Positions 6,154 through 40,911 of a DNA stretch of 40,911 nt are shown piece by piece (within the stretch, counting starts at the first letter, position 1; each line of letters starts with the position of its first letter). A program made the position numbers and the translations under genes. This DNA comes from Thermoanaerobaculia bacterium. GTDB lineage: Bacteria > Acidobacteriota > Thermoanaerobaculia > Multivoradales > Multivoraceae. Location: positions 1 through 40,911 of the forward strand of contig JAJDZH010000178.1 in NCBI GenBank assembly GCA_022824725.1, in the 5' to 3' direction. The notes beneath the pieces were generated by a model. That model ran no database searches. It saw only the letters and a program-made list of their open reading frames with translations, and was not told where the DNA came from.

Positions 6154-6909
6154 TCAGGCCTCTGCCCGCGCACCGTCGAACCCGCCGTAGCCCTTCTCTT
6201 CGAGTTCGTGCGCGAGCTCGCTGCCGCCGGAGCGGACGATTCGGCCGTCGAGAAGGACGTGAACGTGGTCCGGAACGATGTAGTTCAGCAGCCGCTGGTA
6301 GTGGGTGATGACGACGAACGCGCGGTTTTCCGCCCGGAGCGCGTTGACGCCTGCCGCCACCGTCTTCAGCGCGTCGATGTCGAGCCCGGAGTCCGTCTCG
6401 TCCAGCACCGCGAGCCGGGGCTCGAGCACCGCCATCTGGAGGATCTCGTTCCGCTTCTTCTCGCCGCCCGAGAAACCGTCGTTGACCGGACGCCGCAGCA
6501 GCGCCTCGTCGACGTCGACCAGCGTGGCGCGCTCGCGCAGCAGCTTCAGGAAGTCCATCGCGTCGAGCTCGGGCTCGCCCCGCGCCTTGCGGTTCGCGTT
6601 GACGGCCGCCTTCAGGAAGTAGCTGTTGCCGACGCCGGGGATCTCGACCGGATACTGAAAGGCCAGAAACAGGCCCGCGTGGGCCCGCTCTTCGGGCGCC
6701 ATCTCCTGCAGGTCCTCGCCATCGAGCTCCAGCGAGCCCGCGGTGATCTCGTAGTCCTCCTTGCCCGCGAGAACCTGGGCCAGCGTGCTCTTGCCAGAGC
6801 CGTTCGGCCCCATCACGGCGTGGACCTCGCCGGCGCCCACCTCCAGGTCCACGCCCTTCAGGATTTCCTGTTCTTCGACCTTCGCGTGAAGGTCCGTCAC
6901 CCTCAGCAT
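6154..6909 (-). CDS. sufC: Fe-S cluster assembly ATPase SufC
   Basis: GPNGSGKST, FQYPVEIPGV, GFSGGEKKRNEILQM and LDETDSGLDIDA. Confidence 0.97.
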   Translation of the reverse strand: MLRVTDLHAKVEEQEILKGVDLEVGAGEVHAVMGPNGSGKSTLAQVLAGKEDYEITAGSLELDGEDLQEMAPEERAHAGLFLAFQYPVEIPGVGNSYFLKAAVNANRKARGEPELDAMDFLKLLRERATLVDVDEALLRRPVNDGFSGGEKKRNEILQMAVLEPRLAVLDETDSGLDIDALKTVAAGVNALRAENRAFVVITHYQRLLNYIVPDHVHVLLDGRIVRSGGSELAHELEEKGYGGFDGARAEA

Positions 6910-13931: not shown

Positions 13932-14006
13932 TGGCTCCTCGGGAGGGATTCGAACCCCCAACATTTCGGTTAACAGCCGAACGCTCTACCGTTGAGCTAC
14001 CGAGGA
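13932..14006 (-). tRNA. tRNA-Asn (GTT)
   Basis: TCCTCGGTAGCTCAACGGTAGAGCGTTCGGCT-GTT-AACCGAAATGTTGGGGGTTCGAATCCCTCCCGAGGAGCCA folds as a cloverleaf with encoded CCA. Confidence 0.97.
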
Positions 14007-21554: not shown

Positions 21555-21627
21555 GGGTCCATAGCTCAGCGGTTAGAGCATCCGGCTCATAACCGGCAGG
21601 TCCCTGGTTCGAATCCAGGTGGACCCA
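21555..21627 (+). tRNA. tRNA with CAT anticodon, most likely tRNA-Ile2 (lysidine-modified)
   Basis: GGGTCCATAGCTCAGCGGTTAGAGCATCCGGCT-CAT-AACCGGCAGGTCCCTGGTTCGAATCCAGGTGGACCCA. G1:C72 is paired, so it is not the initiator. CCA is not encoded. A TATACT -10 lies at 21524-21529. Ile2 versus elongator Met is inferred from the acceptor and D arms. Confidence 0.9.
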
Positions 21628-21685
21628 CACCGCGAACTGCGGAGCCTGCGATCGCTAACTCACTGGAACCTCTGACAATCGGCGC

Positions 21686-39362: not shown

Positions 39363-40430
39363 ATGGCAGGTTCGGGAGTCGACGAGGTCGAGCGAAACGT
39401 CCTCTCGGCCGCTCAGGACGCGGACGACCGGCGCGTCGAGCCGTCGCTGCGGCCCCAGCGCCTGGCCGACTACCTGGGCCAGGAGAAGATCGTCAAGCTG
39501 CTCGACGTCTACATGCGGGCGGCCCGCCAACGCGGAGAAGCGCTCGACCACGTCCTTCTCTTCGGCCCGCCGGGCCTGGGAAAGACCACTCTTGCCCACA
39601 TCATCGCCCGCGAGATGGGCTCCGCCCTGCGCGCCACGTCGGGCCCGGTGCTTGAGCGAGCCGGCGACCTGGCGGCGATCCTGACCAACCTGGAACCGGG
39701 CGATGTTCTGTTCATCGACGAGATCCACCGACTCGGGCCGACGGTGGAGGAGATCCTCTATCCGGCGCTCGAGGACTTCCAGCTCGACCTGGTCATCGGT
39801 CAGGGGCCGATGGCCAAATCGATGCGGATCGATCTACCCCGGTTCACCCTGGTCGGGGCCACCACCCGCGCCGGCATGATCACGGCGCCGCTGCAGGCCC
39901 GCTTCGGCATCGTCCACCGGCTCGACCTCTACGACTCGGACGTGCTGACCAGGATTCTCCAGCGTTCCGCCGACGTGCTCGAGGCGCCGATCGACGAGGG
40001 CGGCGCCAACGAGATCGCCCGGCGCAGCCGCGGCACCCCCCGGATCGCCAACAGGCTGTTGCGCCGGGTACGAGACTACGCACAGATCGAGGCCGACGGC
40101 CGGGTCGACCGAACGACCGCAACCGAGGCCCTGGAGCAGCTCGAAGTCGACGATCACGGCCTGGACGAGATCGACCGCAAGATCATGAGGATCCTGATCG
40201 AGCAGTACGGGGGCGGGCCTGCTGGCCTCAAGGCGCTGGCCGCATCCGTCGGTGAGGATCAGGGAACGATCGAGGACAACTACGAGCCGTACCTGGTCCA
40301 GCAGGGCTTCCTGCAGCGCACCTCCCGCGGCAGGGAGGCAACGAACAAGGCGTACGGACACCTCGGCCTGGGCTGCTCCGATGACCCGAGCAAGAACAAG
40401 CGGCCGAGCAAGAACAAGCGGCTCTTCTGA
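39363..40430 (+). CDS. ruvB: Holliday junction branch migration helicase RuvB
   Basis: [51 protein letters not shown] and EPYLVQQG. Confidence 0.97.
40386..40421 (+). repeat. Exact 18-bp tandem duplication in the ruvB 3' end
   Basis: CCGAGCAAGAACAAGCGG occurs twice in a row and encodes [12 protein letters not shown]. Confidence 0.95.
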
Positions 40431-40546
40431 AAGCAGGCGCCGGAACGGGCGGGCAACCGCACGCCACGCCATTCCAGTTCCGCCCGGTTGCTGTAGTTCA
40501 GCACCCGGCAGTGCTTTGAGCGCCTGACCTCCGCGAGCTCACGCGC

Positions 40547-40639
40547 CTACGTGTAGCCGAATGCCTCGCGCGCAGCGTGGAAGAGGTTCTGCCCGTCCAC
40601 GAAGACGACCGCGCGCTTGACTTGAGGCTCGCTGTTCAC
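40547..40639 (-). pseudogene. Truncated NYN-domain (LabA/DUF88, PIN-like) ribonuclease
   Basis: Not in the ORF track. GTG 40639 gives MNSEPQVKRAVVFVDGQNLFHAAREAFGYT then TAG. The F-V-D-G-x-N-L motif is the first catalytic strand of NYN/LabA proteins. Only about 115 nt remain before the convergent ruvB stop. Confidence 0.75.
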
Positions 40640-40650
40640 CGCCCGTCTGG

Positions 40651-40700
40651 AAAAAATAACCCCGCCCGAGGCCTTGCGGCGTGTCGAGCGGGGAGCAAGT
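40651..40700 (-). ncRNA. Candidate ~50-nt terminated hairpin RNA (leader or antitoxin) upstream of the NYN gene
   Basis: ACUUGCU-CCCCGCUCGA-CAC-GCC-GCAA-GGC-C-UCGGGCGGGG-UUAUUUUUU, preceded by the extended -10 TG-G-TAGCGT (40707-40715). Confidence 0.55.
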
Positions 40701-40855
40701 GAAGGCACGCTACCAAACCGGGCCCAGTCCTTCGAGCATCGGCTGGCGTGCCAAGCGGGGCTTCGCCCGCCGCATGGCGCCAGCCGGCGCGCGCGTATAC
40801 GCTATGTCGCCTTTCGCGCCCTCCGACGACGACGTGACTTCCCGCCCATCCGATC

Positions 40856-40911
40856 ATGAAGGTACTCAAGTTCGGCGGCTCTTCCGTGGCCGATGCAAGC
40901 CGCCTGCGGGC
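40856..40911 (+). CDS. Aspartate kinase (possibly bifunctional AK-HSDH), N-terminal fragment at the window edge
   Basis: ATG 40856 gives MKVLKFGGSSVADASRLR, which carries the aspartokinase KFGG(S/T)SV signature. Confidence 0.88.
   Translation, partial: MKVLKFGGSSVADASRLR

Follow-up and report, generated by a model that had tools for sequence, protein, structure and literature searches.

At the far end of a Thermoanaerobaculia bacterium contig (JAJDZH010000178.1, assembly GCA_022824725.1; the whole 40,911-nucleotide stretch is referred to here as the window), on the minus strand beyond ruvB, a promoter-like sequence and a short hairpin precede a 30-codon reading frame that looks like the beginning of an NYN-type ribonuclease gene. 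A first-pass annotation, made from the sequence alone, had interpreted this arrangement as a possible decayed RNA-antitoxin/nuclease cassette. The locus thus raises the question of whether the hairpin is a chance fold or a neighbour's terminator, or whether it belongs to the nuclease gene, and what it might then do there. We found that the window holds a truncated remnant of an NYN module, and that in intact copies of this module the linkage between hairpin and NYN gene is strict. The window signal alone is not above chance; comparison with homologues supplies the significance. RNAfold reproduced the exact shape that had been described (a stem of 10 base pairs, a CAC/C internal loop, three further pairs and a GCAA loop), with a minimum free energy of -26.1 kcal/mol and a z-score of -2.1, and 6 of 200 shuffled sequences folded equally well. 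A scan restricted to the window returned no promoters at all and a single terminator-like site, where shuffles gave 0.9 +/- 1.2 such sites.

The identity of the frame was settled by its homologues. As annotated, a GTG codon 11 nucleotides (nt) past the UUAUUUUUU tail of the hairpin opens an NYN-type frame, and the 30-residue peptide it encodes was identical at 29 of 30 positions to the N-terminus of P0002 and P0003, its best matches, both of them intact NYN proteins of ~206 residues. The protein collection was queried with a 69-residue read-through of the frame in which X replaced the stop; among 369 candidates, 271 proteins reached E <= 0.01, nearly all of them ~205-217 residues long and carrying the Pfam NYN domain (PF01936). 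Intact homologues passed the Pfam model easily (50.8 and 50.4 bits for P0002 and P0035, E = 3e-13, with a gathering cut-off of 24.2), whereas the fragment alone remained sub-threshold (12.7-13.2 bits, E = 0.13-0.18); the anticipated match to an NYN hidden Markov model was therefore obtained for the family and not for the remnant. Homologues have a conserved tyrosine at the position of the window's TAG, and the residues encoded past this stop did not align with NYN homologues.

How the frame was broken could be read from the junction. When the whole window was searched by tblastn with P0002, only residues 1-30 were recovered (E = 6e-15), the rest being noise, and no further NYN pieces were found in this way. 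Comparison with the closest intact DNA copy, locus L001, gave a single blastn block of 191 nt at 91% identity, which covers window positions 40548-40737 and practically coincides with the extent originally annotated (40547-40736). By blastn, the remainder of L001 was unrelated to the window, and the last 4.9 kb of the window had no other match; no synteny between the window and L001 was detected. The junction alignment ends in ...ACGTA, and because it stops inside codon 31, the TAG derives from a deletion or rearrangement junction and not from a point mutation. The view of the locus as a decayed copy was borne out, since only residues 1-30 survive; D15 is the one catalytic residue left, so that the window frame cannot encode an active enzyme.

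Intact copies were collected by a genome scan with one genome per species, which produced at least 599 pattern matches; tblastn confirmed 468 of the matches listed. Linkage counts cover the best-scoring 80 of these 468 confirmed loci, and the leader alignment contains 81 sequences, namely the 80 fetched loci and the window. NYN proteins of the 80 loci are 64-92% identical to P0002 and are distributed over Acidobacteria, Gemmatimonadota, Nitrospirota, Gamma-, Beta- and Alphaproteobacteria, Caldilineaceae, Rokuibacteriota/Methylomirabilia, Eisenbacteria, Verrucomicrobia, Planctomycetota, Lentisphaerales, Saprospiraceae, Bipolaricaulota/Acetothermia, Omnitrophota, WOR-3 and Fraserbacteria; cultured carriers include Brevifollis gellanilyticus NBRC 108608 (L070) and Brevundimonas sp. 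AAP58 (L076). The test set beforehand was whether the hairpin also stands upstream of intact homologues. It was present directly upstream of NYN in 80 of 80 loci, in 77 of them by a pattern-plus-fold search of the 100 nt upstream and in three, with variant hairpins (L063, L065 and L076), by eye, at a distance of 5-20 nt from the start codon. A first sign that the hairpin travels with the gene was given by the gene calls for P0010 and P0019, which run upstream through the hairpin; their spurious N-terminal extension is the hairpin translated in another frame.

A covariance model built from the 81 leaders matched the window once (40648-40707, 79.3 bits, E = 7e-17, the window row being part of the model). 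In the 806,862 nt of fetched DNA it gave exactly one match per locus, always just upstream of NYN; these per-locus matches are circular for the training rows, and what they inform on is the absence of extra copies in the flanks. Methylobacterium bullatum (L081) has an independent copy, not used for training, ahead of its NYN gene (45.1 bits, E = 5.6e-9). Distant NYN genes (23-29% identity), from a small Escherichia coli plasmid and a Microbacterium plasmid, had no such hairpin. Since the window and each locus carry just a single copy, a repeated element of the REP (repetitive extragenic palindromic) or MITE (miniature inverted-repeat transposable element) type was ruled out. Orphan hairpins were also looked for in plasmids and E. 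coli genomes, where only two chance matches of <=10 bits appeared.

The alignment of the 81 leaders further indicated which properties of the hairpin are being kept. In total, 97.8% of the cells in the stem columns were paired, and 10 of the 13 base pairs had changed on both sides, in 37 cells, values that were reached in 0 of 500 shuffles; when the pairing partner was slid by 1-3 columns, pairing dropped to 33-56%. Many of the pairs are U-G (35 of 78 at one position, for example), which become mismatches if read on the other strand and therefore point to a sense-strand RNA and not to a DNA palindrome. Mean pairwise identity, calculated over 3,160 pairs, was 82.3% in the hairpin core compared to 66.0% in the coding sequence, where codon positions 1+2 stood at 77.3% and position 3 at 43.3%. 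The hairpin is under purifying selection, and selection acts on its sequence as well as on its structure.

At the level of single features, the bulged C on the 3' side and the UUAU directly after the stem were each kept in 77 of 81 copies; the covarying hairpin with conserved internal loop and U-tract that the annotation had named as supporting evidence was thus found. A 5' internal loop of CAC occurred in 50 copies and a plain GNRA loop in 54. Eight further loops contain GNRA within an extra closing pair and the remainder are assorted, which shows that the loop is not a fixed feature. In the 5' tail, an A that aligns with A40700 of the window is conserved in at least 90% of leaders and is accompanied by an invariant T, with ACTTGCT as the commonest form (27/81). 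Searches of Rfam 15 with cmscan gave no match at the leader, either in the window (E <= 10) or in six other loci (E <= 0.1). The stem has a passing resemblance to part of 16S rRNA, which was judged to be due to chance.

Comparison suggests where both ends of the predicted small RNA may lie. A sigma-70-like match of at least 8 of 12 positions was present in 65 of 81 leaders, and in 55 of 81 the best -10 element ends 13-18 nt before the stem, a spacing that would put the start of transcription at the conserved A ~7 nt before the hairpin. The extended -10 annotated at 40707-40715 on the minus strand was found in the window as TGGTAGCGT, in a weak promoter with 6 of 12 sigma-70-like positions. Downstream of the stem, 74 of 80 loci have at least six T in 10 nt, and a stable GC-rich hairpin followed by a U-tract on the transcribed strand, the signature of a candidate intrinsic terminator, was observed in the window and in these 74 loci. 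The remaining six loci (L041, L056, L063, L065, L068 and L077) have T-poor tails. Leaving out L056, the downstream segment was folded for L041, L063, L065, L068 and L077, plus L076 and L081. A separate clear terminator follows the conserved hairpin in L041 (1745-1812) and L063 (5938-6000), a terminator-like second hairpin in L068 (5934-6000), and a second hairpin adjacent to the start codon in L065 (5947-6000) and L076 (4525-4585), all of them proteobacterial copies in which the U-tract was lost and the conserved hairpin kept; the second hairpin was weak in L081, and none was seen in L077. Retention of the hairpin without its U-tract, with another block placed after it, suggests that the hairpin and the block to nuclease expression are maintained separately.

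The encoded protein has the expected features of an NYN nuclease. D15 and N18 were present in 80 of 80 sequences, E114, D118 and D143 in 78 each, and D145 in 76; the two rows without E114, D118 and D143 are the nonsense copies L020 and L021, which are cut short. An AlphaFold2 model of P0002 had a predicted local distance difference test score (pLDDT) of 87.2, and its best Foldseek match in the Protein Data Bank was 2qip (E = 2.4e-8, template modelling score 0.67 on the target). In the accessible text of a 2017 classification of the PIN superfamily, 2qip represents the LabA-like NYN cluster, whose function is listed there as unknown (PMC5499597). The C-terminal 45 residues of the module proteins include a conserved basic RNRRG, which lies in a lower-confidence loop of the model and might possibly offer an RNA-binding surface.

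When copies from unrelated taxa were compared, homology ran from ~60 to 110 nt upstream of the start codon to 0 to 20 nt after the stop codon, boundaries that define the unit as a ~0.75-kb promoter-hairpin-NYN module. This module is horizontally spread. Two NYN modules, L028 and L032, lie on contigs of one assembly (JACQWA01) and are 85% identical over the module and near flanks, which indicates that some genomes carry more than one copy. Clustering of the flanking open reading frames (ORFs) of the 80 loci yielded no conserved partner gene, the big clusters being alternative NYN frames. Recurrent neighbours were seen in subsets only: an SNF2-type helicase in 6 loci, a DUF1156 methylase in 6, HsdM in 5 and a ParB-like protein in 4. 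In 13 of 80 loci (L016, L026, L035, L053, L069, L073, L041, L079, L025, L029, L040, L054 and L072), an SNF2 helicase, DUF1156 methylase or HsdM gene adjoins the module, in surroundings of the restriction-modification or DISARM-like type.

The nuclease gene is broken in 4 of the 81 copies (the window, L020, L021 and L074), and all four broken copies keep a high-scoring hairpin (71-79 bits). L020 and L021, from two Caldilineaceae genomes, share a change of TGG to TGA at a conserved tryptophan (~6211-6213), with the frame otherwise intact, as is the hairpin; this may reflect a recent inactivation or else a codon that is read through. In L074 (1050-1680), the NYN gene is frameshifted, with disruptions near both ends, and the hairpin is intact at 71 bits. 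Such a pattern of decay would be in line with a costly gene, but there are only four cases and their decay seems to be recent. The layout of the remnant in the window is summarised in Table 1. The remnant itself has no function and, lying between ruvB and the next gene, is a relic of little practical consequence.

Table 1. Parts of the NYN-module remnant in the window, with their positions, strand and basis
Feature	Position	Strand	Basis or remark
Surviving NYN-module block (promoter, leader hairpin, first 30 codons + 2 nt)	40548..40737	-	blastn against intact L001
-35-like hexamer TCGAAG, weak match (3/6)	40730..40735	-	Equivalent in L001 is TTGAAG; most loci TTGACG or TTGACA
Extended -10-like TGGTAGCGT (hexamer TAGCGT at 40707-40712)	40707..40715	-	
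Predicted unpaired 5' tail ACUUGCU; transcription probably starts at A40700	40694..40700	-	Start placed from the -10 spacing
Leader hairpin: 10 base pairs, CAC/C internal loop (3-nt/1-nt), 3 base pairs, GCAA loop	40660..40693	-	RNAfold, covariation, covariance model
UUAUUUUUU tract; with the hairpin resembles an intrinsic terminator	40651..40659	-	UUAU tail common in the family
Truncated NYN frame: GTG at 40639, 30 codons, TAG at 40547-40549	40547..40639	-	tblastn with P0002
116 nt from breakpoint to ruvB stop	40431..40546	.	blastn/tblastn: no similarity to the NYN module

What the hairpin does in the intact module is a matter of interpretation. We consider the chances evenly balanced that, in the horizontally transferred module of which the window holds a dead remnant, a cognate hairpin RNA restrains NYN. 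According to this proposal, a sigma-70-type promoter in intact copies would start transcription ~7 nt before the 34-nt hairpin, and most transcripts would end at the U-tract as an RNA of ~50 nt. Only read-through transcripts would carry the gene for the NYN (LabA-like, PIN-fold) ribonuclease, giving little NYN, and the excess hairpin RNA might bind and restrain this protein in the manner of an RNA antitoxin or decoy, while the terminator would hold nuclease synthesis low. In the window, a deletion or rearrangement took away everything past codon 30, so that at most the small RNA could still be made, from a weakened promoter. The transcription start, termination, RNA-protein binding, toxicity and a role in defence are all what we infer at this point. 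Counting in favour of the proposal are the strict linkage, the sense-strand covariation, the high conservation of the hairpin core, the promoter and terminator-like signals, the mobility of the module with its partly defence-like neighbours and its match to the PADLOC model HEC-09, the AbiF/RCd22 precedent, and the hairpins kept in broken copies. We put forward more tentatively, and with somewhat less than an even chance of being right, that the modules form an unrecognised RNA-protein toxin-antitoxin or abortive-infection class. Its toxin would be a LabA-like NYN protein, a single ~50-nt RNA would serve as terminator, antitoxin and valve, and horizontal transfer would have carried it across over a dozen phyla of bacteria; its usual fate would then be seen in the window, with the toxin lost and the RNA gene left.

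Several observations weigh against the idea that the RNA acts as a partner of the nuclease. Everything observed would fit a purely cis-acting attenuator, or an autoregulatory operator, just as well. To our knowledge, NYN is not among the folds of type III toxins. The linkage counts leave out the other 388 confirmed loci, and both the covariance model and the pair counts use an alignment anchored on the hairpin. Neither the window leader nor any of four intact modules examined contained tandem or direct repeats. A phage collection of 50,697 records contained no homologue, for which reason a phage origin was dropped, and a plasmid collection of 72,556 records contained only one close homologue. 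P0002, P0006 and P0035 match positions 2-166 of the 203 in the PADLOC HEC-09 model (E = 4e-13 to 2e-17), and HEC-09, the one tested relative that PADLOC names, as far as the accessible text goes, gave no protection against any phage tested (bioRxiv 10.1101/2024.01.29.577857). The same accessible text describes a helix-turn-helix-like part at the N-terminus and the NYN domain at the C-terminus, a domain order that differs from that of the module NYN proteins, and it mentions no RNA element (bioRxiv 10.1101/2024.01.29.577857).

The first-pass annotation had compared the cassette to ToxIN and to abiF. This likeness stood for the layout, which is analogous, and failed for the components, as there were no repeats, no abiF match and no ToxN or Abi_2 protein. 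Type III toxin-antitoxin systems (ToxIN, CptIN and TenpIN) resemble the NYN module in having an endoribonuclease gene preceded by an RNA partner and a terminator. Compact and mobile, these systems act in abortive infection, and the terminator sets their ratio of RNA to protein. A terminator-like element is likewise predicted between RNA and nuclease gene in 74 of 80 NYN loci, and a second predicted terminator stands in this place in L041 and L063, with a terminator-like hairpin in L068. Type III antitoxins, in contrast, are made of tandem direct repeats that are cut by the toxin, whereas the NYN leader is a single hairpin; and type III toxins belong to the ToxN/AbiQ/CptN family, whereas the module protein matched only NYN in Pfam and has a LabA-like fold.

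AbiF/RCd22 of Clostridioides difficile is the closest documented precedent for the order promoter, RNA, terminator and toxin. [quoted passage not shown] The two systems differ in their proteins, Abi_2/AbiF (HEPN-like and Cas13-related) in C. difficile and NYN in the module, and in their RNAs, RCd22 having two motif hairpins and a separate terminator where the NYN module has one hairpin doing both in most loci. With cmscan, no match to the abiF motif (RF03085) was obtained in the window leader or in six loci. If our reading is right, the NYN module would work like a type III toxin-antitoxin or AbiF system, but it lacks defining features of both and is a member of neither.

On the side of the protein, a PIN/NYN-like RNase that recognises stem-loops, one of them in its own mRNA, is Regnase-1 (ZC3H12A). 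It is unlike the module in being eukaryotic and in having its target in the 3' untranslated region, and it serves as an analogy only. In the accessible text of the superfamily classification, RNase_Zc3h12a is placed with PRORP and not with NYN (PMC5499597). The module proteins share with the LabA-like NYN group (PF01936, cluster NYN.COG1432; 2qip, VPA0982) the Pfam match, the fold and the acidic active-site residues; the accessible text of that paper mentions neither an RNA partner nor a leader motif for the group (PMC5499597). A full-text literature search, which did not extend to the supplements of RNA-motif catalogues, turned up no report that pairs an NYN gene with an RNA, and the NYN-hairpin pairing seems to be undescribed.

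Bacterial LabA-like NYN proteins form a large family whose function is not established (PMC5499597), and a strictly linked, covarying RNA outside Rfam gives this subfamily a testable partner. It suggests that the RNA-antitoxin logic of ToxIN and AbiF was reinvented with another nuclease fold and with a minimal RNA of one hairpin. If this is true, the RNA-regulated modules of defence and addiction would gain a new family of toxins, there would be a compact pair of RNA and protein to study, and gene calls that extend NYN through the hairpin, as those of P0010 and P0019 do, could be corrected.

The main rival to a trans-acting RNA partner is autoregulation in cis only, in which NYN would bind or cleave the hairpin in its own mRNA leader, much as Regnase-1 does with stem-loops of its mRNA, and thereby tune termination, stability or translation, with no antitoxin acting in trans. 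The position of the hairpin 5-20 nt from the start codon, the conservation of both sequence and structure, as would suit a protein-binding site, and the single unit without processing repeats all agree with this explanation. On the other hand, a strong promoter followed by an efficient-looking terminator predicts an excess of free short RNA, which would be wasteful for pure control in cis, and several loci without a U-tract have gained a second terminator and have not lost the hairpin. We regard cis-only autoregulation as unlikely, although it retains an appreciable share of the probability; sequence analysis cannot separate it from the RNA-partner reading.

More improbable is that the hairpin is a passive insulator or attenuator, that is, a strong intrinsic terminator which travels with the gene and keeps the nuclease low without any specific recognition between RNA and protein. 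A GC-rich stem followed by a U-tract is what such an element would look like, and the module is found in unrelated genomic contexts. A passive terminator, however, needs structure and not sequence, yet the core is 82% identical, above the 77% of codon positions 1+2, in genes that, at 43%, are close to saturated at synonymous sites. Moreover, 77 of 81 copies keep the bulged C and 77 of 81 the UUAU, and T-poor loci keep the hairpin while several of them add another terminator or a start-proximal hairpin.

We attach very little probability to a very small riboswitch-like attenuator of NYN expression that responds to a ligand or factor. The position in the 5' leader, the terminator, the conserved internal loop and the conserved flanking tails would be in keeping with one, but the ~7 nt upstream of the stem leave no room for an alternative anti-terminator, the variable loop rules out a loop pseudoknot, and Rfam gave no match. 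Still less probable is an element acting as DNA, such as a recombination site, a transposon end or a palindromic operator. The module is mobile yet without a recombinase, and its left boundary is close to the hairpin; against this, pairing is kept through strand-specific U-G wobble, there is one copy per module with no matching repeat at the other end and no extra copies in the window, and the promoter lies upstream, within the conserved block. Finally, a chance hairpin or a host-gene terminator (of ruvB or a neighbour) beside a spurious short ORF, which the weak window-only statistics (z = -2.1, scan not enriched) and the sub-threshold Pfam score of the fragment might have favoured, is refuted by the 190-nt block, which shares 91% identity with an intact module from unrelated surroundings, by the same covarying hairpin in 81 homologous leaders, and by an orientation that is wrong for ruvB, with no minus-strand gene upstream.

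The last point had already been part of the annotation, which placed the terminator-like structure upstream of the NYN gene and not behind ruvB, and it was confirmed. The ruvB gene (39363-40430, Pfam RuvB_N/lid/RuvB_C) lies on the plus strand, opposite to the hairpin, and ends 230 nt from it; because no T-tract follows the hairpin on the ruvB strand, the hairpin is not ruvB's terminator. Upstream of the module, no gene was found on the minus strand.

Some features of the window lie outside the module. The 3' end of ruvB contains a perfect 18-nt tandem duplication in 2.1 copies (40386-40422, plus strand), which gives a repeated RuvB tail past the RuvB_C domain, the latter ending at residue 334 of 355. 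The sole Rfam/ARAGORN matches in the window were tRNA-Asn (GTT) at 13932-14006 on the minus strand and tRNA-Met (CAT) at 21555-21628 on the plus strand. At the end of the window, an ORF on the plus strand (40856-40911) opens with MKVLKFGGSS, which we take to resemble the start of an aspartate kinase, and runs past the window end.

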